Shown piece after piece: positions 502 through 19,318 of a DNA stretch of 19,655 nt. The DNA lies in IMG/VR virus record IMGVR_UViG_3300029577_000167, positions 1-19,655 of that record. The stretch is one strand, 5' to 3'. The position numbers and the translations under genes were made by a program. The notes beneath the pieces are model-generated. The model had not been told where the DNA came from. It ran no database searches and worked only from the letters and a program-made list of their open reading frames with translations. The number at the start of each line of letters is the position of its first letter. The first letter of the stretch is position 1. This stretch comes from a virus (Duplodnaviria > Heunggongvirae > Uroviricota > Caudoviricetes).

Positions 502-510
502 TAACACTAT

Positions 511-4664: not shown

Positions 4665-4702
4665 GTTGATAATTGATAGGTAAGTGCTTATCTATTACCA
4701 TG

Positions 4703-4902: not shown

Positions 4903-5358
4903 CAGCTCAAAACCGTAAAAGTATTCAGTGATGGCTCCTGCCTCAAAAATCCGGGCGGGCCGGGCGGTTACGGCATCGTTCTCCAGTATCGAGGCGAAGA
5001 GCGCGAGCTTTCTGAGGGCTTCCACAGCACGACCAACAATCGGATGGAGATGATGGGCGCCCTGATTGCGCTGGAGCGTCTGAAGTACCCCTGCAACGTG
5101 ATCCTGCATTCCGACAGCCAGTATCTTAAAAACGGCATGACGCTCTGGATGAAAGGCTGGAAGCGTAACGGATGGATCACGTCTGAGAAGAAGCCAGTCA
5201 AAAACGTGGATCTCTGGAAACGTCTCGACGCGGCCGCCAGTCGTCATAATGTCCGCTGGAAGTGGGTTAAAGGCCATGCAGGTCATCGCGAGAACGAAAT
5301 GTGTGACCGTCTGGCGAAGATCGCCGCCTATTGTCGAGCGAGTCTCCGCTTTTGTTAA
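4903..5358 (+). CDS. rnhA: ribonuclease HI homologue; initiation codon unresolved
   Basis: ...[23 protein letters not shown]...[18 protein letters not shown]...HSDSQY...[16 protein letters not shown]...[20 protein letters not shown] aligns along the whole length with E. coli RNase HI as recalled. The frame is open from 4765, but no ATG/GTG/TTG exists in frame before 5044 (the codon at the position of the E. coli Met is CAG). Confidence 0.75.
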
Positions 5359-5603
5359 GTCCCCGCTGAATAATCCCCTCACCCGCGGTGAGCAGATGGA
5401 GCTGGCAAGGTGGTTTCTGCGTATCCATGAGCAGATGGAAGTTTTTAAACAGTTGCCGGATCTGCCCATTACAGACGGCCAAATTCAGTGTGCCACTTCA
5501 GTACGGTCGACGATGACAACGACGCAAACCTGCTTTTCGTCAAATCCGAAATCATAAAGTTGCGCAGGGAGAGAGAGAAATCGACGCAGAGCAGGCCCGC
5601 AAT

Positions 5604-5819
5604 ATGTGGGACGAGGCAGAAAACGCTGATGACGTAAAAGAAAGTTGCTGCTGTTTCGGTGTCGGTAACGAACTGCTGAGTCTGTTTGGTGACGATCCGT
5701 GGTATGCCGGTTGGCCAACGGTGCCAAACCCCAGATACCAATACCTGGAACGTATCATGAACGCGGTACGTAATGGGCTGAAAGAGCTTCACAATCAGAT
5801 GAGAGAAGCAATCGGTTAA
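5604..5819 (+). CDS. hypothetical small protein (71 aa)
   Basis: ORF with ATG start; no clear SD; contains a CCC triplet (SCCCFG). Confidence 0.35.
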   Translation: MWDEAENADDVKESCCCFGVGNELLSLFGDDPWYAGWPTVPNPRYQYLERIMNAVRNGLKELHNQMREAIG

Positions 5820-5857
5820 GTGCTATAGTCAGGCGCTTTTATATTTATGGAGTGAAT

Positions 5858-6556
5858 ATGAAAAATATCCTACTGGCATCATTGTTGGTGGCATCGCCGG
5901 CTGTATTTGCAGCCAGCTTTGACTGCCAAAAGGCTTCGGCAGAAATCGAACACAAAATCTGCGATAACGAACGCCTGTCAAAATTAGACGAACAACTTAG
6001 CTCTACCTATTCCAACGCACTCAAAGCAAACCCGGGGGACGCAGACGCCTTAAAGACGGTTCAGCGTCAATGGGTAAGTATGCGTGGAAAACTCACTGGT
6101 GATAAGACTCTGGAGTTGGCTTATCTAATCCAAATTAATGGCCTCAAGAGTTTGGATGGTTCGGCCAGCACTGCGGTGGTCAATGAGACACCAAAGCCTG
6201 TGCAGAAACAGCCTGAAGTTCAGGAAAAGACAAGCAAGGCAGACACAAAGCAGGCTGAGAGCGGTAAAAAGCTAACTCTGGAGTCATTCCGAGCTAAGTA
6301 TATTGAAGTTGACGGTGAATACTACAGCACGACATCCCTTCCCAGAGGGAGTTCGTTCTTGTTCACCTGCGCAAGTCGTATCGCAGATGACCAGGTGAAT
6401 ATTTGGAAGAAGGTGGCAGCCAAAGAGGGCAAGATCGATCTCTTCTTTGAACTTGAGAATCGAATACATACCGCAATGCTGAATGCCAATTTTCAGAAGC
6501 TAAATAGTGATTTAACTAAAACAGGCATTTGCGATCTGATTACTGCTGTTCCGTAA
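5858..6556 (+). CDS. secreted protein with LprI-like (DUF1311) domain
   Basis: Signal peptide MKNILLASLLVASPAVFA; FDCQKASAEIEHKICDNERLSKLDEQL...QRQW pattern typical of DUF1311 / lysozyme-inhibitor LprI N-terminal domain; GGAG 5 nt upstream of ATG at 5858 (ORF track starts at GTG 5852). Confidence 0.65.
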   Translation: MKNILLASLLVASPAVFAASFDCQKASAEIEHKICDNERLSKLDEQLSSTYSNALKANPGDADALKTVQRQWVSMRGKLTGDKTLELAYLIQINGLKSLDGSASTAVVNETPKPVQKQPEVQEKTSKADTKQAESGKKLTLESFRAKYIEVDGEYYSTTSLPRGSSFLFTCASRIADDQVNIWKKVAAKEGKIDLFFELENRIHTAMLNANFQKLNSDLTKTGICDLITAVP

Positions 6557-6564
6557 GCCAGATA

Positions 6565-6583
6565 AGGCCATTATTTGTGGCCT
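6565..6583. terminator. hairpin AGGCCA-ttatttg-TGGCCT, bidirectional terminator candidate
   Basis: Stem-loop between convergent genes 5858-6556 (+) and 6612-6815 (-); immediately followed by the palindrome TTAAACAATTTGTTTAA (6583-6599). Confidence 0.45.
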
Positions 6584-6611
6584 TAAACAATTTGTTTAAT
6601 TAGTGGTGTAA

Positions 6612-6815
6612 TTATTGGAATCCCAGGCGAACTAAATCCATTGGGCAGAACAGATCTTCCACACCTTCGATAGACACGCAGTCAGAGCGGCGTAATTGTT
6701 CTTCTGATTTGCCTTCTCCGCAGATTTCCTTGATGACTCCCGTTGCACCATTCGTTGCCACCATCACTCGGCTGCCGGTAGTGATAGTGTTACGGTTGCG
6801 ATCATAGGTCTTCAT
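6612..6815 (-). CDS. YdfZ-like small protein (67 aa)
   Basis: MKTYDRNRNTITTGSRVMV... resembles the E. coli YdfZ family as recalled; strong RBS AAAGGAGGAA upstream on the minus strand. Confidence 0.6.
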   Translation of the reverse strand: MKTYDRNRNTITTGSRVMVATNGATGVIKEICGEGKSEEQLRRSDCVSIEGVEDLFCPMDLVRLGFQ

Positions 6816-7002
6816 CGTTTCCTCCTTTCACATGGGTCAAATCAGGTTTCAAAAATTGCCGTTTTCCATGTAGGTGCGATTTGCAAAATCTCAAGCGCCA
6901 AAACAAATTGTTTTCACCATCTTGTTATTCAATTAACCCGTAAAGTTGACCAGTACCGTAATAAATACCACTGTTTATATGTGCAGTATTGCGAGGCGAG
7001 CA

Positions 7003-7269
7003 ATGGGCAGCAAGAATTCTAAATATGTGATCGTCTATAGGGGCGAAGCACTCAAGCACCTAATACCCGGACAGTTCGTTTTCTTCCAACGTGAAAAAGA
7101 ATACGGTGGGGGGTTCTGGCTTGGTAAAACGCATGAGGATGGGTTCGAATTTGTGCTGGAGCAACCCACTTCACTAAGTTACGGGCTTGCGTATCTGATC
7201 AGATTGTCGAGTGTCGAAGCCAGGTATATGGAGTTTGTTGATGACATAGACGACTTCAAACTCACCTAG
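7003..7269 (+). CDS. hypothetical protein (88 aa)
   Basis: ATG at 7003 preceded by GAGG; ORF track extends to 6946 without an RBS. Confidence 0.5.
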   Translation: MGSKNSKYVIVYRGEALKHLIPGQFVFFQREKEYGGGFWLGKTHEDGFEFVLEQPTSLSYGLAYLIRLSSVEARYMEFVDDIDDFKLT

Positions 7270-7310
7270 TCATCCCTTAAACATCTTGTTTTCTGCCTTT
7301 CGTTATTTGA

Positions 7311-7343
7311 GATAATAATACCAATAAGAAAACAAATTGTTTA
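7311..7343 (+). promoter_or_regulatory. conserved upstream cassette (type A), copy before gene 7355
   Basis: GATAATAATACCAATAAGAAAACAAATTGTTT, followed by AAGGAG and ATG at 7355. Confidence 0.55.
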
Positions 7344-7354
7344 AGGAGTTAATC

Positions 7355-7591
7355 ATGTTCGGAACCGCGAAAGAAATTATCGAAAAGCTGGAGAACTACC
7401 CAGAAGACGAGCCGCTGCTGATGGTGATGTGGCACAAGGAAGATGTAGGTGAAGGGCGACCAGACCTGACTGACGAACAGTGCGTTCAGGTTTTGCGAAA
7501 AATCAAAGAGTGCCATGATGCCAGCGTCGGCGTGAATTGGGATGTCATTTCTGACACGGCCAACATTCTGTTTCCAAAGGAGAAGGCATGA
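7355..7591 (+). CDS. hypothetical acidic protein (78 aa)
   Basis: AAGGAG RBS 6 nt upstream of ATG; stop overlaps the start of the next gene (ATGA). Confidence 0.6.
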   Translation: MFGTAKEIIEKLENYPEDEPLLMVMWHKEDVGEGRPDLTDEQCVQVLRKIKECHDASVGVNWDVISDTANILFPKEKA

Positions 7592-7908
7592 TGCTGAAAA
7601 TCACCGAATCGTATAAGACGGCGGTGATCAGCACCGCCCACGTCACGGCAGCGGATTCAGAACGGCTACCCATTGCCTGCTTCGACCCACTTACTGATCG
7701 CGGGTTGAATTGGGTACACGGTACACAGTATGGATGGATTGTTCGTGCTGGAATGCGAGGGAATGACTGGAAGGAAGAATTGCGTGATTACGGCATTTCC
7801 CAAGAGGCGATCTCTAACATACAGGCCATACGGGATGCCGGGTATGATTCGGTACAATTTGACTGTGATGCGGAGCTGGTGGATGGAATGCCAGCATGGG
7901 ATTGGTAG
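7588..7908 (+). CDS. hypothetical protein (106 aa), translationally coupled to upstream gene
   Basis: AAGGAGAAGG RBS; ATGA overlap with 7355-7591. Confidence 0.6.
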   Translation: MMLKITESYKTAVISTAHVTAADSERLPIACFDPLTDRGLNWVHGTQYGWIVRAGMRGNDWKEELRDYGISQEAISNIQAIRDAGYDSVQFDCDAELVDGMPAWDW

Positions 7909-7923
7909 ATATAACTACTAGCA

Positions 7924-8550
7924 ATGGCGGGAATAATTACCTGGAAAGTTGATATCATATACCCGCTTGTATTTCAAAATGGAATGGATGTAATGGAAAT
8001 CGATACTTTAGAAAAAAAATCAGTTAAAAACCTCTACGCGTGGCTTATAGCAATACTGCCGTTTGTTGTCAGCGTCCCCCCTGCTGAGTACGACAATTAC
8101 GTTATGGTGATTTCGTTCGTCATTGGGCTTGGACTGCTGGTCGCCGATCGCATGAATTTGACTGAGGCAGGCTATGAGCCACCATCATTCTTATGTGGGT
8201 TCTTTATCCCCCCTGTGTATCTCTGGAAACGAGCGACGGTTCTTGGAAGTAACCGACTGCTGTTTATCGTATGGATTGTTGCCTTTGCTGCATCATTTTT
8301 CGTGTATAGCTTCAACGCAGATTCAGCGCTTGAAGAAGCTGCTTGCCCTATAGTTACCACTATTCTGAAAGAAAATAACGGTTCAGAAGCATCTAAATGC
8401 ATGAAGGTAACAATTCAGGACAAAGTGACGGACAAGTTCTACAAAGCCACGGCTACACTGGATAACGGTAATGACATTAACATCACTATCGAAATGATCG
8501 GTGACGAGAATTTCTACGTTCGCGTGCCTAATTACTACCTAAACGACTAA
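7924..8550 (+). CDS. predicted membrane protein (about 3 TM segments; start uncertain, alternatives 7984/7993)
   Basis: Hydrophobic segments LYAWLIAILPFVVSV, VMVISFVIGLGLLVA, LLFIVWIVAFAASFFVY; soluble C-terminal region. Confidence 0.5.
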   Translation: MAGIITWKVDIIYPLVFQNGMDVMEIDTLEKKSVKNLYAWLIAILPFVVSVPPAEYDNYVMVISFVIGLGLLVADRMNLTEAGYEPPSFLCGFFIPPVYLWKRATVLGSNRLLFIVWIVAFAASFFVYSFNADSALEEAACPIVTTILKENNGSEASKCMKVTIQDKVTDKFYKATATLDNGNDINITIEMIGDENFYVRVPNYYLND

Positions 8551-8987
8551 CGGCTGCAACTCGTTGACATTGGCGGTCACAAATTGAGGATTTCTATAAG
8601 AGTCCGTTGATCGCCACTTCCCCCACCTCTCCAACCTACCCCAGCCCAGGGGTGACAAGGCATTTAAGCCAATTACACCCATAAGAAAACAAATAAATAA
8701 CACGTCAACGAAAAGTCAACGCTTTCCTCTGATTTGGTCTAAAAAGTTGACGTTTTCGCAAGCCATCTCTTATACCCAAAATCCTGCGCACCAGAATCCA
8801 TCTCCCTGCGACCAAAACGTCAAAAACGACTCGTGATATCACTCAAAAACAGAAGCGCTCAGAAGCGCTCCCGTTGCGTTATATTGGGCATCTAAACAAG
8901 TTGTTTTCAGGCATAAGAAAACAAGTTAACAACCCCCACAGGAAACCCAGAGACGCCATTACCCACAATCCCGGAAACACCCACCTC

Positions 8988-9073
8988 TTCCTGTCAGACT
9001 ACCGAAAAGACCCACCTCATTGCCCCAGGCTACAGACCACCCACCTAATATTCCCAGGCAACCGAGAACGCGG
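8988..9073 (+). repeat. three tandem 28-31-bp C/A-rich repeats (core CAGRCWACMGA...CCCACCT)
   Basis: Units 8988-9018, 9019-9046, 9047-9073; paralogous triplet at 12989-13074. Confidence 0.7.
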
Positions 9074-9646
9074 TTCGCACGCGCAAACCCCGATACGTCA
9101 TTACCCAATACACGGAGAAGAACAGCCAGAACGAAACCCCGGACAAACCCAGACAAGAACAGGAGCCGTCACAATCTCGTTTACCCACCATTACCCCGAA
9201 AGAGAGCGCAAATTCCTGAATAGCAGGGAACGCCATTACTTCATATGCGGAGAACAACTAAAGCGCCCTACTGCCATTACCCACACTTTCATCATTTCAC
9301 GTAAACGAAGAGAAAAGCGCACCTGCCATTACTCCATACACGGAGAAGAACACTCACCAAAACGACGAGAACAACCCAGACGAAAACACAGAGAAGAACC
9401 ACCTCAAGAAGAACGAAACCACATATGCCGGTAGAAAGAACAAACCACCCATTTCACCCAAAGGAATACTCGCCGTATAGAGCGTTATCAGAGGGAAGGT
9501 TTATGCCCACATAAGAGAGAAAATTCGTGGGAGGTATAAGTGGGAAGGGAAGGAGGGGTATCGCCACTTTTTCCGCATAAATTCAAGCCATAGTTTTCAT
9601 CCCCCGTAACGTCCCTTTCCACCCCTTCGGTCAGCCTTCGGGCCAT

Positions 9647-9825
9647 CCGGGAAAGCTATGTCCCTTTTCAGGAACGGGAGCGTCGCCGCAGGGAAAAGGC
9701 TTGAGGTTTTCAGGGAAACGGTGGGAATCCCGCTATACGAACCGGGGAAAGGCTGGCTGCCGGTCGGGAAACGGGTACATCCCGGTACAGAGTGAGGGAC
9801 GACTGCGGGAGCGGTGCGGGAAATC
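9647..9825 (+). repeat. GGGAAA(C/A)GG-type direct repeats, about 21-bp period
   Basis: CCGGGAAAGC 9647, CAGGAACGGG 9669, GCAGGGAAAAGG 9687, CAGGGAAACGG 9711, CGGGGAAAGG 9743, TCGGGAAACGGG 9763, GCGGGAAATC 9816. Confidence 0.65.
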
Positions 9826-10093
9826 TTCGGGAGTGCGCCTTACTCTTCACTCGCCTGAAAATCGCGGGGGAGTGTCATTCCCTCTCGTGCAGCTACTGGA
9901 CTCCATTCTGCCAGACCATCATTGGGTCTCAAGCTATTTCAGTAGGTTTTCGGGGAGAAGGATATTCTGCCCACCAGCCCCGTGGCGCGCGTAGAGCAGA
10001 ATATCGTAAATACTGGCTCCCGTGTCGTTCCCGGATATTCACTGCCCAGCCTGGCTTTCACGACATAAAATCCTTTTCCGCCTTTGTCTTATT

Positions 10094-10128
10094 GCGATAA
10101 TAACACCAACAAGTAAACAACATGTTTA
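10094..10128 (+). promoter_or_regulatory. conserved upstream cassette (type A) before gene 10160
   Basis: GCGATAATAACACCAACAAGTAAACAACATGTTTA; palindrome AAACAACATGTTT at 10115-10127. Confidence 0.55.
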
Positions 10129-10159
10129 GACGTTATATAAACGAAGTGAGGATGAAGAG

Positions 10160-10378
10160 ATGATTAAGATGCCTGTGACGGTTGAGGTGTGGGGCGTGGA
10201 TTCCCTGGCTGAGTGTCTGGATGCAGTGGGGCCGGAGTTGTACCGCAAGTTGTGGTCGTTCGTCCCGGCAGAAGGGGAATCGCCCAAAGGGAAGGATATC
10301 TGGCACCTGCTGAGTGAAGATGAAAAGCGGGAGCTGGTGGACGCGGTACACAGCGAGTTCCCGGGCGACGAAGATTAA
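10160..10378 (+). CDS. hypothetical small acidic protein (72 aa; 17 D/E vs 7 K/R)
   Basis: GAGG RBS 8 nt upstream; followed by hairpin terminator at 10385-10410. Confidence 0.6.
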   Translation: MIKMPVTVEVWGVDSLAECLDAVGPELYRKLWSFVPAEGESPKGKDIWHLLSEDEKRELVDAVHSEFPGDED

Positions 10379-10384
10379 GAGTGA

Positions 10385-10410
10385 GGCCACCAGCACGGTG
10401 GCTTTTGTCG
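10385..10410 (+). terminator. intrinsic terminator (GCCACC-agcac-GGTGGC + TTTTG)
   Basis: Hairpin and T-run immediately after the stop of 10160-10378. Confidence 0.6.
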
Positions 10411-10450
10411 CTATTAACCTCCGGGGCAGCGCAGCACCGTAACGATATAC

Positions 10451-10506
10451 TTTGTGGCCGTTTTCTTACTGGTATTGTTTACGCAATTCAGAAAACAACA
10501 TGTTTA
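10451..10506 (+). promoter_or_regulatory. conserved upstream cassette (type B, about 56 bp) before gene 10518
   Basis: TTTGTGGCCGTTTTCTTACTGGTATTGTTTACGCAATTCAGAAAACAACATGTTTA; near-identical to 10942-10997. Confidence 0.55.
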
Positions 10507-10517
10507 AGGATTGCGTT

Positions 10518-10847
10518 ATGTTTGCAAATATCGACATCAACCAAATCAAGAAAATGACTCAAAAAGAGTTTGACCAGTTTTATGAGTTAGAAGGTTGGTC
10601 TTCCACGCTGATCAATTCGCGCTGGGTGCTTGAGCTGATGACTCGTGATGATGCTCCTGCTTTGATTATTTGCGACCTGGGTGATGATGCTGACTTTATG
10701 GATATGAGCGAATTTTGTGTGGATACATACAACCGCAGCCAGAAGTACTACTTCACATGCGATAGCGAGAATGACGTGATTTCTAAGCTCTATCTTCACC
10801 TTGTCCAGCATTGGGACGTTCAGGAGTTCCTTGATGTATTCGCGTAA
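10518..10847 (+). CDS. hypothetical acidic protein (109 aa; 21 D/E vs 8 K/R)
   Basis: AAGGA RBS; ATG at 10518 (ORF track begins upstream at 10452, inside the cassette). Confidence 0.6.
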   Translation: MFANIDINQIKKMTQKEFDQFYELEGWSSTLINSRWVLELMTRDDAPALIICDLGDDADFMDMSEFCVDTYNRSQKYYFTCDSENDVISKLYLHLVQHWDVQEFLDVFA

Positions 10848-10941
10848 ACCCAACCAAAGCCAGCACCGCCTGCTGGCTTAACTTCTCTGTAGCCGCAGGG
10901 AAGAACCACCTTTAGATAATTCATGTGCCTGAGCAATATGC

Positions 10942-10997
10942 TTTGTAGCCGTTTTTACACTGGTATTATTTACGCCATTGAGAAAACAATTTGTTTA
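10942..10997 (+). promoter_or_regulatory. conserved upstream cassette (type B) before gene 11008
   Basis: TTTGTAGCCGTTTTTACACTGGTATTATTTACGCCATTGAGAAAACAATTTGTTTA. Confidence 0.55.
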
Positions 10998-11007
10998 CGG
11001 AGTGGTG

Positions 11008-11319
11008 ATGAATACTTCATTGGTGCTGGGTCTTGCTGAAGGTCAGGAGAGAAAAGAAAAACCAACCTTAATGGGGCATCTCACATTGCTGGATATCGTA
11101 GCGAATGGGACTTCTATCCGTCTGTTTCGTGAAAAAGCCATTACCTTCGACGCGGGCAATTTTACGCGCTATGTGATGGTAGTTCGTCGCCAGCGTGGAA
11201 GAGGGTGGATGTCGGTCCAGAAAATGTGGCCAGAGGACCAGCTTGAACTGGCGCTGATGGAAGCCAACCGTGTCGCCCAACAAGAGATCCAACGAGCGTC
11301 TGTTCAGGCGGTAGCTTAA
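11008..11319 (+). CDS. hypothetical protein (103 aa)
   Basis: GGAG 5 nt upstream of ATG 11008; terminator at 11354-11382. Confidence 0.55.
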   Translation: MNTSLVLGLAEGQERKEKPTLMGHLTLLDIVANGTSIRLFREKAITFDAGNFTRYVMVVRRQRGRGWMSVQKMWPEDQLELALMEANRVAQQEIQRASVQAVA

Positions 11320-11353
11320 ACATGTGCAAGCAGTAGTTAGTCGAATGTACGAC

Positions 11354-11382
11354 AGCCCCGCCAATCCTTCGGGGCTTTTTTG
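11354..11382 (+). terminator. intrinsic terminator (AGCCCC-gccaatccttc-GGGGCT + TTTTTT)
   Basis: GC-rich hairpin followed by a 6-T run. Confidence 0.7.
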
Positions 11383-11440
11383 TATTGTAAGTACTTACTT
11401 ATGATAATAAAATTAAAAATTAAACACTAAGGAGAGTGAA

Positions 11441-11836
11441 ATGACCGTTAAACGCGAAAATCTGACCCTGGATATGTATTATGCATCAGAGACGGAAAAT
11501 GGAGACAAAGTTGCAAAAATTACAATTGTGCTACGCGATAATGCCTCCGGCGAAGAAGTTCACACCAGTACCTTAACTCGCACCGGCGAGGCCACAAAGG
11601 GAAAATATTCGGTGCGTTACCAAAGCATCAGTAATGCTTCTGACCCTTTACTGATAAAACTGGAAACTCATTTCCGTGGCGCGGATCAGACGTTGTTTGA
11701 AAATTTGATGAAAAAGGTCGATGCGGTTTATACATCGAGTTTAAATACCAATAGTACCTGGATGGGACAACACGGTCTGCGAATAATCTCCGGCGAAAAG
11801 ATCGACACCATTGTCCCTGAAAGCGTATTCGCTTAA
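11441..11836 (+). CDS. hypothetical protein (131 aa)
   Basis: AAGGAGAG RBS; AT-rich leader containing the perfect palindrome GTAAGTACTTAC (11387-11398); terminator at 11847-11872. Confidence 0.6.
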   Translation: MTVKRENLTLDMYYASETENGDKVAKITIVLRDNASGEEVHTSTLTRTGEATKGKYSVRYQSISNASDPLLIKLETHFRGADQTLFENLMKKVDAVYTSSLNTNSTWMGQHGLRIISGEKIDTIVPESVFA

Positions 11837-11846
11837 TCCTCTTTGA

Positions 11847-11872
11847 ATGGCGCGTAAACCGCGCCATTTTCT
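11847..11872 (+). terminator. intrinsic terminator (ATGGCGCG-taaacc-GCGCCAT + TTTTCTT)
   Basis: Hairpin plus T-rich tail after stop at 11836. Confidence 0.65.
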
Positions 11873-11953
11873 TATTCCCGATAACAATTTGTTTTCTGCC
11901 TTATCTGATTTGTGAAAATGATTTCACTGAAGCAACTTAATAAGGATACCATC

Positions 11954-12328
11954 ATGGGACTTGATATCTATATCGAGACGCAGCCTAAAAACGATCTGAA
12001 TAACGAGGCATCCAGAAAGCAGGTTGCTTACTTCCGTAAGTTCAATGCGCTCGTTGGGTGGATGGAGCGCAACGTAGGTGAAGTCGAAAATTGTGAGCTT
12101 TTAGAATTAACGATGAATGACATTTGTTTTCTGAAGGCTCATTTGATGCACATAAACGAAAGTAATTGCGAAGTGTACTTACCTACCCGGGAAGGTTTTT
12201 TCTTCGGCAGTCAGGAGTACGATGAAGGTTACTGGCATGACGTGGATAAGCTGAAAAAACTTGTGGAAGACCTGATCAGGAACCACGACTTTCACAATAA
12301 CAGACTGACGTTCCGTGCCTGGTGGTAA
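11954..12328 (+). CDS. hypothetical protein (124 aa)
   Basis: AAGGA RBS before ATG 11954; shortened cassette copy (CGATAACAATTTGTTTTCTGCC) at 11871-11900. Confidence 0.55.
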   Translation: MGLDIYIETQPKNDLNNEASRKQVAYFRKFNALVGWMERNVGEVENCELLELTMNDICFLKAHLMHINESNCEVYLPTREGFFFGSQEYDEGYWHDVDKLKKLVEDLIRNHDFHNNRLTFRAWW

Positions 12329-12330
12329 AT

Positions 12331-12474
12331 ATGGGCGATTTCAAGAAACGCCTGAAGGAGAGAGCCGAGATGGTCAGAAAGCGAAACGCCTCTTCTGTCA
12401 TAAGATACGCAAGGCAGTTTAGTCGCAACAACAAATCAGTTGAGGAAAAGATCCTTAGCGTAATCGGGCGATAA
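12331..12474 (+). CDS. possible small basic protein (47 aa), starts 2 nt after the upstream stop
   Basis: MGDFKKRLKERAEMVRKRNASSVIRYARQFSRNNKSVEEKILSVIGR; below the ORF-track size cutoff; followed by hairpin 12481-12506. Confidence 0.3.
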   Translation: MGDFKKRLKERAEMVRKRNASSVIRYARQFSRNNKSVEEKILSVIGR

Positions 12475-12610
12475 TTATTAAGGCCACCAGCATTGGTGGT
12501 CTTAAATGACTTTTAATAACCGAAGGTTAGTTTGAAACCTGGCTATCAACTTCCAGAACCTTTCTTGTGTATTCAGCCTGTATTAACTTCTTTTATGCCT
12601 TATCTACACT

Positions 12611-12645
12611 GCGATAATTACACCAACAAGAAAACAATATGTTTA
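12611..12645 (+). promoter_or_regulatory. conserved upstream cassette (type A) before gene 12664
   Basis: GCGATAATTACACCAACAAGAAAACAATATGTTTA; palindrome at 12632-12644. Confidence 0.55.
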
Positions 12646-12663
12646 CGCAGTGAGGATATGCTC

Positions 12664-12945
12664 ATGACTGATTTCACCATTACCCCTAAAGCACAAAATG
12701 TATTCCTTGAATCATGGCTGGACTTGCCGGAAACAGAACAGCAAGAAATGGATCATGTGGAATATGACGAGCAGGTAAGCACGCGATTCTTCCACTTTGA
12801 GGGCTGCGTTTACGACATTGCCGACTTCATGCGAGATGACCGCTTCCCTGAATGGCACGCAAGCTATCCACTAAACGCCTTCGCCATGCTGATGATCCGT
12901 GTGGATGATTCAGGGGATACCATCGACATCGGTCTGCTCCACTAA
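12664..12945 (+). CDS. hypothetical small acidic protein (93 aa; 20 D/E vs 5 K/R)
   Basis: GAGG 8 nt upstream of ATG 12664; hairpin 12951-12977 after the stop. Confidence 0.6.
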   Translation: MTDFTITPKAQNVFLESWLDLPETEQQEMDHVEYDEQVSTRFFHFEGCVYDIADFMRDDRFPEWHASYPLNAFAMLMIRVDDSGDTIDIGLLH

Positions 12946-12988
12946 AGAGTAAGGCCACCAATGCTGGTGGCCTTAAATGACCATCCTG

Positions 12989-13074
12989 TTTCCCGCAGGC
13001 TAAAAACACCAACCTCTTACCTCCAGGCAACCGACAAACCCACCTGTTCCCGTCCGGCTACCGCAACTTTCCAC
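12989..13074 (+). repeat. three tandem about 29-bp C/A-rich repeats, paralogous to 8988-9073
   Basis: TTTCCCGCAGGCTAAAAACACCAACCTC / TTACCTCCAGGCAACCGACAAACCCACCTG / TTCCCGTCCGGCTACCGCAACTTTCCAC; CCAGGCAACCGA core matches 9055-9066 exactly (12/12). Confidence 0.7.
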
Positions 13075-13094
13075 TTTGACGCCTTATTCGTACA

Positions 13095-13130
13095 ACGATA
13101 ATTAACACCAACAAGAAAACAATTTGTTAT
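13095..13130 (+). promoter_or_regulatory. conserved upstream cassette (type A) before gene 13150
   Basis: CGATAATTAACACCAACAAGAAAACAATTTGTTAT; a possible -35 TTGACG at 13075-13080. Confidence 0.55.
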
Positions 13131-13149
13131 TTACGATAAGGAATTAATC

Positions 13150-13632
13150 ATGAATTTTATCGCTACTGTAAACGCACCCGCACATGGCAATATCGCTGTA
13201 ACGTTCTCTGATATTGAAAAACGAGTACTTGGTGCATGGCGCGACAATGAGACGGTAGAACTGTCAGCACAAGAAAAATGCATTATTGCACGCGACATCA
13301 TTTGCAAACGTCGTTACTCACGGGTAATTGAGAAAGCGTATGTCGCAAATTCTGGCTTCGGAACATTTGTCTTCCCGGTACGCTCCGGGCGATTCTGCCA
13401 GTCCAAGCTGATTGAGTTCGCTACGCAGATTTCTGTCTGGATTAAAACTCAATCGTCGTTCAAATTTTCCGACGATGAAGCAGTATCGCAGGGGATGCGG
13501 ATCGCCAACAATGCAATAAAATGCAAAAACATTACGTATGCCGCTGGCGTTGACACATGGAAACTGTTTTGCGCTAACTTTATGCTGAATGTATACGCAA
13601 GCAACCGCATCCACATCCTTGATGGCGTGTAA
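13150..13632 (+). CDS. hypothetical protein (160 aa)
   Basis: AAGGA RBS; hairpin GGGCC-agaaac-GGCCC + TTTCTCT at 13641-13662. Confidence 0.6.
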   Translation: MNFIATVNAPAHGNIAVTFSDIEKRVLGAWRDNETVELSAQEKCIIARDIICKRRYSRVIEKAYVANSGFGTFVFPVRSGRFCQSKLIEFATQISVWIKTQSSFKFSDDEAVSQGMRIANNAIKCKNITYAAGVDTWKLFCANFMLNVYASNRIHILDGV

Positions 13633-13677
13633 CTGAGAAGAGGGCCAGAAACGGCCCTTTCTCTATAGCCACCAGCT

Positions 13678-13818
13678 GCCGCAGGGAAATTTTCAGAAAC
13701 GGCGAGGAACGCATTCATGAGCCGACGGGAAACGGCCAAGATTTTTTCGGGAAACGGCGGGGGTCGCCTTTATGTAGAAAACTGAGCGGGAGAAACCCGG
13801 AATCGCGCCAGAAATTGC
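13678..13818 (+). repeat. second cluster of GGGAAACGG-type repeats, about 22-bp period
   Basis: GCCGCAGGGAAATTTTC 13678, CAGAAACGGCG 13694, CGACGGGAAACGGCC 13723, TTCGGGAAACGGCGG 13747, GCGGGAGAAACCCGG 13785, CGCCAGAAATTGCG 13805. Confidence 0.6.
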
Positions 13819-14231
13819 GTAGCGGCGCTGGGGTAGCGCTGGTGGGGGTTTCAGCCCCTGGGCCATCCAGATAGCTTTCGCTATGTGATTATGTGAATCC
13901 GTGGGTAAATCACTGTAAGCGCGTACACGTTGCCCAACGTGGCAATCATATGCGAGCGGATACAAAACAACACAAAGAGCCGATCCGCGCCGACAAATAA
14001 ACGCGGATCACATAGCAAGACTAAAAGCCAATGATTAACCATACTCTATAGCGCAATATAACGCGTTTTAAGCGCGTTAATGTGTTAAGTAATGTGTATG
14101 TACTAACAAGGATATAAAAGCGCGTCTATGGCGTTATTTTGGTGCTTATTTTTATGTTGTTGGAGCGAGTTAAAGACAATAAAAAACGCGCTAATGATGG
14201 CGCGTTATGGTGGGAGTATTGGAAACGAAAA

Positions 14232-14250
14232 AAGCGCCCATAGTGGGCGC
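14232..14250 (-). terminator. 19-bp perfect palindrome AGCGCCCATAGTGGGCGCT, terminator for gene 14257-14487
   Basis: Flanked by AAAAAA on the plus strand (a U-run on the minus-strand transcript); identical copy at 14507-14525. Confidence 0.6.
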
Positions 14251-14256
14251 TCGATT

Positions 14257-14487
14257 TTATTTGTGTAAACTAATTTTGAATCCCATTTCTACAAACGCTT
14301 TTAACATTAAAAATATATCAGCGTCATTCACGTCTGCTTTTTTTCGCTCCTGGTCGTTCAATAAGTCAATTTTGCGCGTTGTTTCATTTATAAACTCGAC
14401 TGCGCGCCCAGCGATCCCAGCGATCCCAGCGATGCGATTAACATAATATTCATTATGGACGTTAACGCCAGCGATAAGAACAAACAT
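14257..14487 (-). CDS. hypothetical small protein (76 aa) containing IAG-IAG-IAG from a 9-bp tandem repeat
   Basis: AAGGAG RBS 8 nt upstream on the minus strand; low-GC region. Confidence 0.5.
   Translation of the reverse strand: MFVLIAGVNVHNEYYVNRIAGIAGIAGRAVEFINETTRKIDLLNDQERKKADVNDADIFLMLKAFVEMGFKISLHK
14407..14433. repeat. perfect 3x tandem repeat of CCCAGCGAT (in frame inside ORF 14257-14487)
   Basis: Units at 14407-14415, 14416-14424, 14425-14433. Confidence 0.9.
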
Positions 14488-14506
14488 GATTAAGCTCCTT
14501 AAAACT

Positions 14507-14525
14507 AGCGCCCATAGTGGGCGCT
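14507..14525 (-). terminator. second copy of 19-bp palindrome AGCGCCCATAGTGGGCGCT, terminator for gene 14538-15188
   Basis: Identical to 14232-14250; lies 13 bp past the stop of the 216-aa gene. Confidence 0.55.
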
Positions 14526-14537
14526 ATATCCATCTAA

Positions 14538-15188
14538 TTACGCTTTGAAAGCATCAGCCAGATAGTTATAAAAATCATTTTTAACGAAGCGATATTGCTG
14601 TGATCCGTTTTTCGCTGCACCCATTCCTTTGATTTTTTCGACCAGTCCCAGACGTTCGCAAAGATTGATAAGCTGGTTGGCTTGAGTGTATCCTGCGTCT
14701 AATTTTATTTCGTTGGCTTTTTTCGCTTCATTCATTAAATCGAAAACAGCGCCATTGGTGAACGTGTCGATCTCGTCGTTAATCATATCGATTAAAGCGA
14801 ATACACGAGATCCGGACATATCAGCGACGGAATAAACACACTTTCCAGCTTTAATAGATTTAACCAGATAAACCAGTTTTTCGAGTGAATAGCTATTGGT
14901 CATAGCTTCACGGAAAAACGCTTCAGGTGCTTGTTTACTTGCTTTAATCGCGTAGTAAAAGATACCAGCTAATTTCTCATCATTAACAGCGTTTAAAACG
15001 TTGTTGGTGAAGTATGCTAGTTTGGTAGACGCTGCAAGCATGTTAGCTTTATCCGCTTTTGTGTGTGTACCATTTTTATAATGATTGTTATAAGTCTGAG
15101 TAGCGTTGTTGGCTGCAACTTGTAACTCATTAGCGATAACCACAGCAGCGTCGATAATGGATTTTTTAGAAATGGTAACGTTAGACAT
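14538..15188 (-). CDS. hypothetical protein (216 aa) in AT-rich acquired segment
   Basis: AAGGA RBS 8 nt upstream on the minus strand; N/K/A-rich composition distinct from neighbours; no motif recognised. Confidence 0.6.
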   Translation of the reverse strand: MSNVTISKKSIIDAAVVIANELQVAANNATQTYNNHYKNGTHTKADKANMLAASTKLAYFTNNVLNAVNDEKLAGIFYYAIKASKQAPEAFFREAMTNSYSLEKLVYLVKSIKAGKCVYSVADMSGSRVFALIDMINDEIDTFTNGAVFDLMNEAKKANEIKLDAGYTQANQLINLCERLGLVEKIKGMGAAKNGSQQYRFVKNDFYNYLADAFKA

Positions 15189-15461
15189 GATGTTAATCCT
15201 TATGTAATATTGATAACTTAATTTGTTGTTTGTTTATCGTTAGCGTGTTCGCTTTCGATGTGACTAATTATCGATATACAGAAATTAAAATCAAGAGTTT
15301 TTTATGCGGGAACGAAAAAATTTTTCTCCAATAAAAATCAAAATCTTAGAAATAAAACGCGTTTTCTCGAAGGTGTTGCCTAAATAAATTCTCTATTCAG
15401 CCAATCACCCTTATATATTTAAATTGGAATCGAGTTTGTGGGAAATAAATATAACGGGAAG

Positions 15462-15498
15462 TGACGAATAAAATAATAACCGGACTTAGCCGGTTATT
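15462..15498 (-). terminator. intrinsic terminator of the helicase-side operon
   Basis: AATAACCGG-acttag-CCGGTTATT hairpin (15475-15498) followed on the minus strand by a U-rich tract. Confidence 0.6.
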
Positions 15499-15510
15499 AC
15501 CCTTATAGAT

Positions 15511-16038
15511 TTAAAACGGTAAAATCCGTTCGACCCAATCGAACATGGCGACTGTCTTCCTACCGTCCCCCATGTTGAGTGTGACCTGACAAGCGTCAAC
15601 GCCTGAAGACACCCCCTCAATTTCACGGCCATCCGCCATGTAGACCCTTATAGACTTCTGCATCTCATGGGCCTGGCGACAAATTTTGAAGAAATCACGG
15701 CGAGATGGCCGATTGTCCACATAGTCTGGGTGTATCGTTGTCCGACCCGTGAAGTCGTGTGCAATGCCTTCTGTCACACCTGATTCAATCGTGCTGATTC
15801 GCTCAAGTGGGAGCCTTATACGATTATCTTTGTCGAACGGGGCAGGGCAAAGGTCGACCTTGTTGCGTGACGACATGAGACCCTGAACATACATGCAGAA
15901 CACCTGACCATCTTCCATCGTGACCCTTACAGGAATAAGAGACTTGCGCCAGAACATCAGCGCTTTCTCCACGTTGGTGTAATCGCGCGGCCAGACTTCT
16001 GCAGGAATCCCGTAGGTGATGTCAGTAATATTCGTCAT
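15511..16038 (-). CDS. hypothetical protein (175 aa) with internal duplication of an RVxMxDG module
   Basis: Start ATG at 16038 lies 2 nt after the upstream stop (ORF track extends to 16080). PVRVTMEDGQVF...LERISTIE and SIRVYMADGREI...FDWVERI look like tandem copies. Confidence 0.5.
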   Translation of the reverse strand: MTNITDITYGIPAEVWPRDYTNVEKALMFWRKSLIPVRVTMEDGQVFCMYVQGLMSSRNKVDLCPAPFDKDNRIRLPLERISTIESGVTEGIAHDFTGRTTIHPDYVDNRPSRRDFFKICRQAHEMQKSIRVYMADGREIEGVSSGVDACQVTLNMGDGRKTVAMFDWVERILPF

Positions 16039-16042
16039 ATCG

Positions 16043-16465
16043 TCACAGTGTCGTTGGTAAGATATCGATGTCACCAGCATTACTGGTGAACACCCGGAAG
16101 ACTTTCGTCTCGCCAGCTTTGGTAATCGTCTCGCGTTCCTGACGAGCAGGATTCAGTGCGCACAGCCCAGCGTCTTCGAGTGAGGCGCCAACAATCCATT
16201 CTCCGGCATCCAGATGAAAAGTGACTTTTTCACCTGTTTCCAGTTTTGCAACGGTTTCGCCATTGATGAAGATCGATGCGTCGCAACCGGCGCCCACCAT
16301 GCTTTTATCTCTCATAACCACCAGCGTCGATGCCGCCGGAGATTGGTATTTGAATATTCTGGTCTGCGGTGCTGGCTTTGCCTCAGAGACAGGAATAGGA
16401 CGAGATTGACATGCAGTGATAAGTAACGCGGAGGCAGCAACCAGAGGAAGTAATACGTGTTTCAT
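16043..16465 (-). CDS. predicted lipoprotein (140 aa)
   Basis: MKHVLLPLVAASALLITAC: signal peptide with lipobox LITAC; ORF track start at 16501 is upstream of the likely Met. Confidence 0.6.
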   Translation of the reverse strand: MKHVLLPLVAASALLITACQSRPIPVSEAKPAPQTRIFKYQSPAASTLVVMRDKSMVGAGCDASIFINGETVAKLETGEKVTFHLDAGEWIVGASLEDAGLCALNPARQERETITKAGETKVFRVFTSNAGDIDILPTTL

Positions 16466-16524
16466 TGTACCGAACAAAATCCTTATCTTTACGAAAATCA
16501 TGGCGCCTCAAGGCGCCATAATGC

Positions 16525-16803
16525 TCAATCGAGGCGTTTTAGAATATCGGCCAGATCTTCTTTGGTCATACCCGAGTTTTCGTAAATCTTCATGACCTTT
16601 TCACGAGCCTTTGCAGTAGTCTCTAATGACGTAGCTATCTTATCAAAATCACCCATCGTCATATTGGACAGCACCAGATTGATGATGTCTGCTTTTGACA
16701 GTTTTATGCTGCGTTCACGCAGTCGATTCTGAAAGGTCTCTAGTTTATCGTTTGCTTTTTCGGTTAACTTAACCTGGCAGTTAATAGCGCGTTTCTCGCT
16801 CAT
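16525..16803 (-). CDS. hypothetical small helical protein (92 aa)
   Basis: Starts 9 nt downstream of the helicase stop; charged helical composition. Confidence 0.5.
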   Translation of the reverse strand: MSEKRAINCQVKLTEKANDKLETFQNRLRERSIKLSKADIINLVLSNMTMGDFDKIATSLETTAKAREKVMKIYENSGMTKEDLADILKRLD

Positions 16804-16812
16804 GCTTACTCT

Positions 16813-18366
16813 CTATCCAAAACAGTGAAATCGAATGTGCTGCCAACCGGCAAGACCCCCCTCGGCAAACCCAGGCGTCGTGTCGATAATGTGTTTCCGC
16901 TCATATGAATGCGACATGAGGTATTTGTTGCTCACGTCGATGAAGTCGGTAATAAAGCACACGTTAGCCTGATTTTTCTTGGCTCGTAAGCCACGACCGA
17001 CACGCTGTCTCATTTCAACTTCTGCTTTCCCGCCACCACCCAGAATCACCGCGCCTACGCTTGGAACGTCGACACCAACATCCAGAATGGTTGAACCAAT
17101 GAGAACATCTATCTTGCCTGCCGCCAGACTATTAAGTTTTGCTTGTCGGGTAGTCTGGTTTGATTCTCCGTAGATGAAATCGACCTTGAGGCCACTCTCT
17201 TTCATCATTTCCATCAAGATCTGACCATGACGCTTCAGACGAACCAATGTCATACAGTTCAGACCGTGACTCTTGTACATTAGCGCTTCACGCACAATAG
17301 CTTCGTTGCGGCCCAGATTATAGACGATGCCTAACTGATAGGCTTTCTGGTAAGCCGTGCTCATTCCAACCCTAAAATTCAGGTGTTTTGAAGCAAGTTC
17401 GACTCTAATCCGCGCCTCATCTGGAGTGTACGCGATTTTATGATATAAAAAGTATGGTTTCGCTAAAATACCTCTGTCGATCAAATATTTCTCCGTTACT
17501 TTTATCTCGATGCGACCCGCAACGGCCATGAGACGCATATTTGCTTCAGTCGAGTCCTTCATGAACGGCGTAGCTGTCAGCGCCAGACGGTAGTCGGCAT
17601 TGGTACACAACCGGGCTATATCGTAGAAGTTTGAGCCGGATGATTCGTGCGCTTCTTCCAGAATCAGCAGAGAAACGCTGGACAGGAAGCGCTTAACCAA
17701 TTCCCGGCGTTTCAGGTGATACTGTTTTTTCTCTGGAGATGCGTCGCGCGACGGCTCTTCGAGAAAACTAGCAAGGGTCTGAACCGTGGCAACGTTGATA
17801 TGGCGCGATACCTGGAACTCACCAGATCCAATCACCCCAACTTTCTGACCTTTCAGCCACGGCTCGCCATTCTTCGCGCGGTAGTCGATGGATTTCTGGA
17901 AGTTCTCTGCCATCTGGAACATCAGAACCGATCGCGTGGTTAAAAACAGCGTCATACGACCAATGCGAGCAGCAGCCTTACACGCTACGTTCGATTTACC
18001 GCCACCCGTCGCAATCTGGGCAATCATCATCCCTTCGCGCACCAGTGTTTCCACTGTCTGATCCTGATACGCGTAGTCCGGGTTATACGGGAATGGGTTA
18101 ACCACCGGATTCGGCTTACCCAGCGCGGGAGCTTTTTCCTTGCGAACATGCACGCATTTGATGCCAGCTTTCAGAAGATTGGTCGCAACTGGCTTCGCAA
18201 ACCCAGCCGGGAACGCGTTTTTACTCCAGTTGAACATCGTGCTGGTCCCTTTCCAGTCACCAGCCTCCACTTCATAGCTCAACATCTCCTGAACAAGCCG
18301 TTTCACGTTGTCATCAGCGCCAGAAATCAGCGCATTGACTGCATTTGATACAATCCGAACAGTCAT
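16813..18366 (-). CDS. superfamily-2 DNA helicase (DEAD/DEAH-box type, phage-like)
   Basis: Walker A IATGGGKSNVACK, motif II LLILEEAHESSG (DExH variant), LALTATP (motif III-like), arginine-finger-like QRVGRGLR near the C-terminus. Confidence 0.85.
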   Translation of the reverse strand: MTVRIVSNAVNALISGADDNVKRLVQEMLSYEVEAGDWKGTSTMFNWSKNAFPAGFAKPVATNLLKAGIKCVHVRKEKAPALGKPNPVVNPFPYNPDYAYQDQTVETLVREGMMIAQIATGGGKSNVACKAAARIGRMTLFLTTRSVLMFQMAENFQKSIDYRAKNGEPWLKGQKVGVIGSGEFQVSRHINVATVQTLASFLEEPSRDASPEKKQYHLKRRELVKRFLSSVSLLILEEAHESSGSNFYDIARLCTNADYRLALTATPFMKDSTEANMRLMAVAGRIEIKVTEKYLIDRGILAKPYFLYHKIAYTPDEARIRVELASKHLNFRVGMSTAYQKAYQLGIVYNLGRNEAIVREALMYKSHGLNCMTLVRLKRHGQILMEMMKESGLKVDFIYGESNQTTRQAKLNSLAAGKIDVLIGSTILDVGVDVPSVGAVILGGGGKAEVEMRQRVGRGLRAKKNQANVCFITDFIDVSNKYLMSHSYERKHIIDTTPGFAEGGLAGWQHIRFHCFG

Positions 18367-18430
18367 AAACCTCTTTCCTTCGTGCCTTTTGTATGGTAAT
18401 TGGCTATTATGTTAAGTAAGTGCTTACACA

Positions 18431-19318
18431 ATGTATTGTATCAAAAATATGGATGTGAAAATTACGATTCTACAGGTGGAAGTCGCGAACCTGCGTCCGA
18501 ACCCCTGGAATACCAACTCCGTTGGGGCGCAAAACTTCGAAAAACTGAAAGGTTCCATCGAAAAGTTGGGCTTTTTTAAGCCAATTCTGGCGCGAGAGCT
18601 GGACGGCGGCATTTTTGAAATTCTCGGTGGCGAACATCGCTGGCGTGCCGCGATGGAGCAGGGCATTTCAACGGTTCCCGTCATCTCCGTGGGCAAAATT
18701 AACGACCTGGTGGCCAAACAGATGTCCCTCGTCGACAACGAGCGCTACGGCGAAGACGATCAGGTCGCTTTGCAGCGCTTAATCGAAGAAATCCAGTCTG
18801 AAATCGACTACCGGTTGTCCGATATCGCCCCGTATGACGACGAAATGGCGGCAACACTCGCCAAAGCATCCGTTATCGATCTTGAAGCGCTGGAAGCGCT
18901 CTCCCGTGGCGATGACGAGCCGGTCGATGAGGACAAACGCGAGAAAACCGAGCGAGTCGGCGCTGAACACCAGACGATGCGCTTCAAGGTGACGTTTGAT
19001 GCGTCAGATCGGGTCATCGAACAGAAGACTCTCGAAACCCATGAGGTCGTCGAGTTTGAGCTGTCGAGTGTGTTCGACCTGATGGGCGTGCAGCTGCCGT
19101 ACCGCCAGATCATCAAAAACACATGCCCGTGGAGATACCGCGGACCAGAGTGCGGCTACACCGGTCCGTACTTCGACAAAAACAACCAGCAAACCACCAT
19201 GTCAGGAGCGGATTGCTGCACGAAACGTTACGACTCATGCAACGCACGGCGCAACTACTTTGCCAATGGCGTAATCCACTTTGGCGGGTTCATTGGGGCA
19301 ACGCGTTATGGGCAATAG
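18431..19318 (+). CDS. ParB-like N-terminal domain protein with C-terminal lambda gpL-like cysteine module
   Basis: N-terminus LRPNPWNTN...ILARELDGGIFEILGGEHRWRAAMEQGISTVPVI...VDNERYGED fits the ParB/Srx fold (GxxRxxA); C-terminus NTCPWRYRGPECGYTGP...CCTKRYDSC...FGGF parallels the lambda minor tail protein L C-terminus (NTCTWTYRGDECGYSGP...CSKCLSGC...FGGF) as recalled. Start uncertain (18431 or 18449). Confidence 0.75.
   Translation: MYCIKNMDVKITILQVEVANLRPNPWNTNSVGAQNFEKLKGSIEKLGFFKPILARELDGGIFEILGGEHRWRAAMEQGISTVPVISVGKINDLVAKQMSLVDNERYGEDDQVALQRLIEEIQSEIDYRLSDIAPYDDEMAATLAKASVIDLEALEALSRGDDEPVDEDKREKTERVGAEHQTMRFKVTFDASDRVIEQKTLETHEVVEFELSSVFDLMGVQLPYRQIIKNTCPWRYRGPECGYTGPYFDKNNQQTTMSGADCCTKRYDSCNARRNYFANGVIHFGGFIGATRYGQ

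Follow-up and report, generated by a model that had tools for sequence, protein, structure and literature searches.

The last gene of a helicase unit on the minus strand of the window (the whole stretch of 19,655 nucleotides analysed here) encodes a 175-aa protein which, on the evidence of its sequence, is a phage-plasmid relative of FljA and which is predicted from structural modelling to consist of two Sm/Hfq-like barrels of the RNA-binding type in tandem. FljA, the textbook repressor of Salmonella flagellar phase variation, prevents flagellin mRNA from being translated. The window belongs, as a rearranged E. coli member, to the SSU5/pHCM2/pMT1 group of phage-plasmids, which are widespread in clinical Enterobacteriaceae, and the unit is their helicase module. 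Across relatives the FljA-like gene is a core gene whose association with the helicase is conserved. We give not quite an even chance to the reading that this tandem Sm/Hfq-like protein binds an mRNA leader, with a primary target relevant to the phage-plasmid itself, and that the neighboring lipoprotein is accessory.

The ORF list confirmed the coordinates of all four minus-strand genes that the preliminary description had placed in the unit, and the interpretation offered there is borne out in part. The first gene, divergent from a ParB-like gene, encodes an XPB/Rad25/UvsW-like SF2 helicase of 517 aa (16813..18366); it is followed by genes for a 92-aa protein (16525..16803), a lipoprotein (16043..16465, within an ORF of 16043-16501) and the FljA-like protein (15511..16038, within an ORF of 15511-16080). 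SSU5 has these four genes (gp121-124) in identical order, with 94% DNA identity to the window across the whole region, the FljA-like protein of Y. pestis pMT1 is 96% identical to the 175-aa protein, and we observed no substantial difference between the window and its homologues in SSU5 gp121-124, pHCM2 and pMT1. The genes of the unit are probably co-transcribed. The helicase and ParB-like genes diverge from a short intergenic stretch (18367..18430), which is the probable promoter region of the unit; a promoter scan gave a single promoter-like match near it, on the minus strand at 18459-18430, but matches around this region are no more numerous than in shuffled sequence, so that the promoter is putative. 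Neither Rfam nor tRNA scanning gave any match in the window.

Two RNA hairpins on the minus strand accompany the unit. The first (16493..16526) overlaps the stop codon of the 92-aa gene and contains the stem ATGGCGCC-ttga-GGCGCCAT, which had been described as a possible weak hairpin at 16502-16521. The hairpin is real but not weak: the extended stem (16497-16522) has a folding energy of -20.4 kcal/mol (z -3.84) that none of 200 shuffles equalled, and in pMT1, as read from the alignment, two base pairs are changed on both sides with pairing kept. Although the stem is strong and covaries, only four U follow it, and the consensus terminator scan did not list it because of this short U-tract; the hairpin may serve as a leaky terminator, an attenuator or an element of RNA processing or stability. 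The second (15467..15503) closes the unit and bears out the clean terminator proposed there: a GC-containing hairpin at 15470-15503, AAUAACCGG-cuaagu-CCGGUUAUU, is followed directly by AUUUUAUU, with the U-tract extending to 15467. This intrinsic terminator folds with -15.3 kcal/mol (z -4.22), is near-identical in six of seven relatives, and is kept in SSU5, pMT1, pNH25.3, pSAN1-1735 and phage Cyrano.

The likely start of the 175-aa protein is MTNITD at 16038, so that the gene begins 4 nt past the lipoprotein stop codon; the PHROG profile spans residues 15-189 of the long ORF. The protein matches PF03614 (FljA / Flag1_repress) over profile positions 1-170 of 170, with 317.9 bits against a cut-off of 24 (E 1.9e-95), and is 33-38% identical to flagellin-linked FljA. 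It shares with FljA (Salmonella fljBA, FljA(z66) of pBSSB1 and flagellin-linked homologues in E. coli) a size of about 175-180 aa, a two-module layout, the motif ITYG..AE.WPRDY and a C-terminal FDWV.RI. Twenty positions are invariant among 33 sequences from both clades (G10, A13, W16, P17, R18, Y20, R31, Y50, R73, E85, D115, F117, I119, C120, G142, G146, D167, W168, V169 and R171), and these are rich in arginine and aromatic residues (W16, R18, Y20, R31, Y50, R73, R171). The invariant N-terminal motif AE-WPRDY is common to the SSU5 clade and true FljA and absent from deeper phage-plasmid groups, which could point to target recognition shared with FljA and so counts against self-regulation of the element. 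The SSU5-type proteins form a clade apart from FljA, encoded on plasmids of about 105-115 kb whose hosts include aflagellate bacteria. Unlike fljA, the gene in the window has neither a flagellin gene upstream nor an invertase and sits in a phage-plasmid helicase module. No flagellin gene was found in the window or in SSU5-type relatives, and the fljB-fljA arrangement, directly downstream of an alternative flagellin gene, is accordingly absent from both. Among the groups of the family only true FljA sits after a flagellin gene, as in the chromosomal loci L021 and L024, where flagellin is immediately upstream and, in L024, a resolvase-type invertase is also present.

The preliminary description had called this protein internally duplicated on the strength of two RVxMxDG modules. 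Both modules are present (PVRVTMEDG and SIRVYMADG), and the duplication is retained at the level of predicted structure, whereas the sequence evidence for it was rejected: local alignment of the N and C halves, averaged across 33 members of the family, reached z 0.23 and was no better than shuffles, and profile-profile comparison of the two halves (hhalign) gave E 0.004 over 26 columns only. The predicted structure shows the small bent barrel typical of the Sm/Hfq-like fold, with an N-terminal helix followed by five strands. The two barrels are predicted to be fused in one chain and not arranged as a homo-hexameric ring, and Hfq, Sm and LSm proteins have no significant sequence similarity to the 175-aa protein: no Hfq or LSM Pfam match was found at E up to 1, the best PDB profile match, an archaeal Hfq-like protein, is not significant (E 0.37), and neither Sm1/Sm2 motifs nor Hfq or LSM profiles place the protein among Sm proteins. 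A search of the viral structure library BFVD gave single small-barrel matches and no full-length tandem match, the PDB profile search found no solved FljA structure, and no paper in the open-access literature searched links FljA to the Sm/Hfq fold. A tandem Hfq-like architecture would account for mRNA-leader recognition by FljA and suggests residues for mutagenesis.

In PLSDB, 831 plasmids carry the FljA-like gene, 822 of them with a full-length match. Klebsiella accounts for 341 of these plasmids and Y. pestis for 62, both being hosts that normally lack flagella; other hosts of the clade include Escherichia (229), Enterobacter (92) and Salmonella (60). The order helicase, 92-aa homologue, variable slot and FljA-like gene was found in SSU5, pMT1, Cyrano and four Enterobacteriaceae plasmids, and also in the distant Klebsiella plasmid pCAVP366-109 (34% identity), a locus of group B (L013, 22% identity) and a contig of group C (L026). 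In four of the five deep groups the FljA-like gene is tied to the helicase. In relatives that carry the slot gene on the opposite strand, the region upstream of the FljA-like gene looks sigma-70-like, and no consensus of the sigma-28 flagellar promoter was seen there. One IMG/VR sequence (L014) proved to be a spurious short peptide match and not a family member.

By analogy with FljA, we infer that the FljA-like protein would recognize the leader of a specific mRNA and prevent its translation. The conserved, primary target would be an mRNA of the element itself or a host RNA that all its hosts share, and on this view the helicase/replication module would contain its own post-transcriptional regulator. 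T4 RegA, a translational repressor whose gene lies among the replication genes of the phage, offers a parallel as a small RNA-binding repressor within a DNA-replication cluster; its fold and family are unrelated to the FljA-like protein, and the likeness is one of genomic logic. In the window's element, the lipoprotein would be translationally coupled to the FljA-like gene across the 4-nt gap, both genes probably being reached by read-through of the hairpin after the 92-aa gene, and transcription of the unit would stop at the conserved intrinsic terminator. In flagellated hosts such as E. coli, additional silencing of fliC may occur. Support for a fliC-independent role comes from carriage of the gene on the Klebsiella and Y. 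pestis plasmids, from its dN/dS of 0.08-0.2, Klebsiella lineages included, and from the lack of a flagellin gene nearby. However, phage-plasmids move between hosts, so that finding the gene in Klebsiella is no proof that it functions in that host, and self-regulation is opposed by the fact that every experimentally studied family member represses fliC. No candidate operator emerged, which also counts against self-regulation: a search for one resembling the fliC leader (GGGN6CCCAATA) gave 0 matches inside the element, and blastn-short comparison of the K-12 fliC leader with the window and stretches of SSU5 and CP057419.1 gave chance-level matches only. These two results have no bearing on a target in the host. 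Self-regulation would represent a new control point in phage-plasmid biology.

We also consider it possible, with distinctly tentative confidence, that the FljA family as a whole is ancestrally a phage-plasmid family, a tandem-Sm RNA regulator hard-wired to a UvsW/XPB-like helicase and its 92-aa partner, of which Salmonella FljA would be a domesticated offshoot, the copy in the window controlling phage-plasmid transcripts or a host transcript common to all hosts. The Hin invertase, which is phage-related, provides a parallel for such domestication. This claim is based on gene context and not on the tree, because deep nodes of the neighbor-joining tree have bootstrap values of at most 35%; an attempt to root the tree and so demonstrate a phage-plasmid origin of FljA was dropped for the same reason. 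If true, SSU5-type elements gain an unrecognised post-transcriptional layer in the choice between plasmid and phage life style.

The principal alternative is lysogenic conversion, in which the FljA-like protein would bind the 5' leader of host fliC and stop flagellin translation, rendering carriers aflagellate, with the lipoprotein as a second surface-modifying gene. Repression of fliC is the default function transfer, because all studied members act in this way and plasmid-borne FljA makes E. coli non-motile. As cited in PMC2652032, FljA works post-transcriptionally on fliC mRNA, and FljA from plasmid pBSSB1/2 is active across species, the E. coli carrier being non-motile. The full-length family match, the WPRDY motif and the Arg/aromatic invariants common to true FljA argue in the same direction, as do the mostly motile enteric hosts of the clade, the annotations of SSU5 and pHCM2, which already name the product a fliC repressor, and the presence of a lipoprotein homologue beside the FljA-like gene in a locus as distant as L013. 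However, purifying selection keeps the gene intact in Klebsiella plasmids, whose hosts normally lack fliC; its linkage to the helicase is unlike that of freely moving cargo; and it lacks the partner flagellin gene that accompanies every proven FljA gene. Furthermore, S. Typhi CT18 with pHCM2 is still H:d-flagellate. The literature searched yielded no relevant link between SSU5 or pHCM2 and FljA or motility. We regard lysogenic conversion as a serious but rather doubtful explanation. It would lower energy costs, conceal flagellin from immunity and keep out flagellotropic phages. If host flagellin is silenced, carriage would alter motility, H-antigen typing, recognition by innate immunity and the sensitivity of carriers to flagellotropic phages.

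The lipoprotein gene is accessory, an optional passenger: among the relatives compared, it is patchy in the variable slot between the 92-aa and FljA-like genes. Its likely start, MKH at 16465, gives a precursor of 140 aa, as annotated in SSU5 and plasmids. The signal peptide (MKHVLLPLVAASALLITA|C; MKHVLLPLVAASALLITAC) ends in a lipobox that fits the pattern [LVI][ASTVI][GAS]C, so the reported L-I-T-A-C box is present; its Cys19 is invariant in 14 homologues, together with two further cysteines, and the L013 version reads LLVGC. Superinfection exclusion is the role of phage lipoproteins such as T5 Llp and Cor, and the preliminary description had suggested that the present protein likewise blocks entry of related phages. 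We consider this unlikely. While a bona fide predicted lipoprotein with conserved cysteines and a patchy, moron-like distribution is what such a factor would look like, PHROG, where the label is 'lipoprotein' only, and PADLOC revealed no resemblance to a defence or exclusion family; the predicted fold is a generic beta-sandwich; and dN/dS of 0.05-0.18 gives no sign of diversifying selection. SSU5, moreover, reportedly uses the LPS core and not a protein receptor. The match to DUF2846 (PF11008) is below the gathering threshold (19.6 vs 34.3 bits).

The preliminary description had also, very tentatively, likened the duplicated module of the 175-aa protein to Rof/YaeO, a Sm-like inhibitor of Rho; the small Sm-like fold is indeed predicted, while Pfam gives no ROF family match and Hfq ranks above Rof as a structural match. 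It is improbable, then, that the tandem barrels form no mRNA repressor at all and either inhibit Rho or another host protein in the manner of Rof, or bind ssDNA or R-loops in a WYL/Sm-like way and so aid the UvsW/XPB-like helicase, given the lack of sequence relationship to ROF or WYL families, the better match to Hfq, and clear homology to FljA, for which repression at the mRNA level is reported.

The remaining proteins are in keeping with a conserved helicase neighborhood. The helicase carries a DEAD/ResIII ATPase core and a Helicase_C domain (Pfam E 8e-15, 1e-14 and 5e-13 for DEAD, ResIII and Helicase_C), matches PHROG 16 'DNA helicase' (E 1.8e-93), and has XPBII, Rad25 and T4 UvsW as its nearest solved relatives; PADLOC defence-system profiles gave generic SF2 matches only, and dN/dS is 0.01-0.09. 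Profile searches, which placed the 175-aa protein in the FljA family, gave for the 92-aa protein a full-length match to PHROG 1466 (E 2.3e-49), whose function entry is 'unknown', and no significant Pfam or PDB match; a likeness of its N-terminus to ribbon-helix-helix proteins, seen by eye, was set aside, as Pfam, PDB and profile searches support no family. The 92-aa protein (dN/dS 0.04-0.17) accompanies the helicase in all lineages examined, with homologues directly 3' of the helicase gene in SSU5, pMT1, Klebsiella plasmids, L013 (25% identity, E 8e-11) and L026. PADLOC profiles matched none of the 92-aa, lipoprotein, FljA-like and 216-aa proteins. The last of these, PHROG 1513 (E 4e-143), is encoded by a 651-nt minus-strand gene (14538..15188) that has its own upstream region and, in all SSU5-type relatives, comes after the FljA-like gene; it is part of the conserved neighborhood, and its homologue in L013 is 34% identical (E 1e-26).

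The minus-strand unit outlined in the preliminary description is borne out by the ORF listing and by direct reading. It encodes a helicase of 517 aa (16813-18366), a 92-aa protein (16525-16803), a lipoprotein with the claimed lipobox L-I-T-A-C (ORF 16043-16501), and a 175-aa protein counted from MTNITD (15511-16038), in which both expected RVxMxDG modules can be read (PVRVTMEDG and SIRVYMADG). The lipoprotein probably starts at MKH (16465), which gives 140 aa, as annotated in Salmonella phage SSU5 and in plasmids; its stop codon and the start codon of the last gene are 4 nt apart. SSU5 is 94% identical to the helicase region, a 52-kb E. coli plasmid is 99.9% identical to the region, and 548 plasmids match it, the majority non-mobilizable and many about 105-115 kb in size. 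The region belongs to the SSU5/pHCM2/pMT1 group of phage-plasmids. The SSU5 GenBank record labels the four genes as helicase, hypothetical, putative lipoprotein and 'putative repressor of phase 1 flagellin'. As its gene set is known and annotated in databases, and the phage-plasmid family itself is well known, the locus is no new kind of system. For the locus as a whole, what had been observed is confirmed and its interpretation is partly supported.

The hairpin proposed to separate the 92-aa and lipoprotein genes is present, but it is not weak: the inner stem is 11 bp long, the folding energy is -20.4 kcal/mol (z -3.8), and the structure overlaps the 92-aa gene's stop codon. When the window is aligned with Y. 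pestis pMT1, two pairs are changed on both sides with pairing kept. Since only four U follow the stem, this hairpin would be no more than a leaky terminator, or else an element for processing or stability. The clean terminator described at the end of the unit corresponds to a hairpin with a U-tract (15467-15503, minus strand), which folds at -15.3 kcal/mol (z -4.2) and is almost unchanged in six of seven relatives.

The 175-aa protein covers the entire profile of Pfam PF03614 (Flag1_repress; E 1.9e-95), the family of FljA, the Salmonella repressor of phase 1 flagellin (fliC). Homology searches divide this family into two main groups: a phage-plasmid clade on contigs of about 100-115 kb, which is 53-98% identical to the window protein and counts among its members a protein of pHCM2 with the annotation 'repressor of fliC', and a flagellin-linked clade (31-38% identity) annotated 'phase 1 flagellin transcriptional repressor'. 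FljA is reported to regulate fliC mRNA post-transcriptionally, and a plasmid with fljA(z66) turns motile E. coli non-motile (PMC2652032). Assignment of the 175-aa protein to the FljA family, with a predicted tandem Sm-like fold, is well supported, and family and fold together suggest that it would bind RNA and block translation. A half-versus-half comparison detected no significant sequence similarity, so the internal duplication claimed earlier rests on the predicted structure, which agrees with it. In the open-access literature searched, no paper connects FljA with a fold of the Sm or Hfq type. The predicted tandem-Hfq-like architecture of the family is a contribution of this analysis.

The FljA family is very small: 1.84 billion cluster representatives, searched exhaustively with an HMM, gave only 37 clusters. 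Three deeper full-length groups exist beyond true FljA and the SSU5 clade. Gene order in the SSU5 clade is invariable (helicase, 92-aa gene, variable slot, FljA-like gene, 216-aa gene), with zero to three genes in the slot, at times on the opposite strand. The Klebsiella phage-plasmid pCAVP366-109 keeps this order with an FljA-like protein of 34% identity, as does an IMG/VR locus of group B, which encodes the helicase, homologues of 96 aa and 224 aa, an FljA-like homologue, and a divergently oriented lipoprotein homologue (29% identity). The order also holds on a metagenome contig of group C, where the C-terminal part of a helicase, the gene for a 93-aa homologue and the FljA-like gene are consecutive and slot genes are absent. 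By these gene orders, four of the five deep groups are helicase-linked. Unlike them, FljA genes on the chromosomes of Atlantibacter and S. diarizonae come immediately after a flagellin gene, with a resolvase-type invertase upstream of flagellin in S. diarizonae. Which way the family evolved is suggested by gene context and not by a neighbour-joining tree, in which the deep branches did not resolve. What is new is that the majority of FljA-family diversity consists of helicase-linked phage-plasmid genes, not flagellar genes, and that the lipoprotein is demoted to a passenger of the variable slot. SSU5-clade FljA-like genes (69% and 56% identity) also occur on two genome contigs with the MAG labels Bacillota and Candidatus Fimivivens; most likely these contigs come from enterobacterial phage-plasmids and were binned wrongly.

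The FljA-like gene is found on 831 PLSDB plasmids, with a near-full-length match in 822; of the 831, Klebsiella hosts 341 and Y. pestis 62. Both are normally without flagella. Pairwise dN/dS is 0.08-0.2, Klebsiella lineages included, and purifying selection likewise acts on the helicase, the 92-aa gene and the lipoprotein. The deep helicase linkage and this conservation in aflagellate hosts lead us to favour, tentatively, a target centred on the phage-plasmid and not host fliC. Host fliC is a somewhat less probable target: all characterised family members repress it, and a WPRDY motif is shared by the SSU5 clade with true FljA and with no other group. That the protein acts like Rof or as an accessory to the helicase is improbable; the faint resemblance to Rof noted earlier was right as far as the Sm-like fold goes, but the nearer match is Hfq, also Sm-like. 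A fliC-leader pattern, leader comparison and an Rfam scan revealed no operator candidate for the FljA-like protein.

In relatives whose slot gene is encoded on the other strand, a separate upstream region with sigma-70-like elements precedes the FljA-like gene, and no sigma-28 consensus was seen there. Upstream of the gene in pSAN1-1735 (L011, 3420-3470) and phage Cyrano (L003, 1800-1850) we observed a common motif, GTTAGTCTGTCTAC..AGAGA.ATGTATATAATGAC, with a TGTCT..AGACA inverted repeat overlapping the TATAAT box; it resembles the operator of a repressor, placed on a sigma-70 promoter from which the FljA-like gene would be transcribed alone. Between the window and pMT1, dS forms an uneven mosaic, and the value of 0.86 for the lipoprotein (16043-16465) against 0.13 for the adjoining FljA-like gene and 0.37 for the helicase suggests that the slot gene alone was replaced by recombination.

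At the right end of the window, a 295-aa ORF (18431-19318, plus strand) is a chimera: residues 14-103 are a ParB N-terminal domain, and residues 195-293, fused to it in frame, are the C-terminal half of phage minor tail protein L (Pfam E 3.7e-39). Homology to intact ParB relatives ends at 19015, and 19016-19381 matches, at 100% identity, the tail L / C40 peptidase region of this phage-plasmid type, located ~18.4 kb away in NZ_CP032074.1. The 19015/19016 junction marks an internal deletion that removed part of the element, and this copy is therefore probably a defective phage. Beyond a second junction, 19382-19578 matches the end of stfQ, the tail-fibre gene ('phage tail protein') of this phage-plasmid family, which in NZ_OP242248.1 lies ~9 kb from tail L. 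The last ~77 bases (from about 19579) are a repeat found in >5000 plasmids, presumably an IS1 end, which probably accounts for the window or contig ending there. At the other side of the unit, positions 1-15400 form a mosaic of short hypothetical genes, with ydfZ, DUF1311 and DUF1380 among those annotated. The closest plasmid here, the 52-kb pRHB27-C18_3 (CP057419.1), covers only 2167-15400, in four pieces; its counterpart of this stretch is interrupted by IS100, and it is unlike the window over 1-2166.
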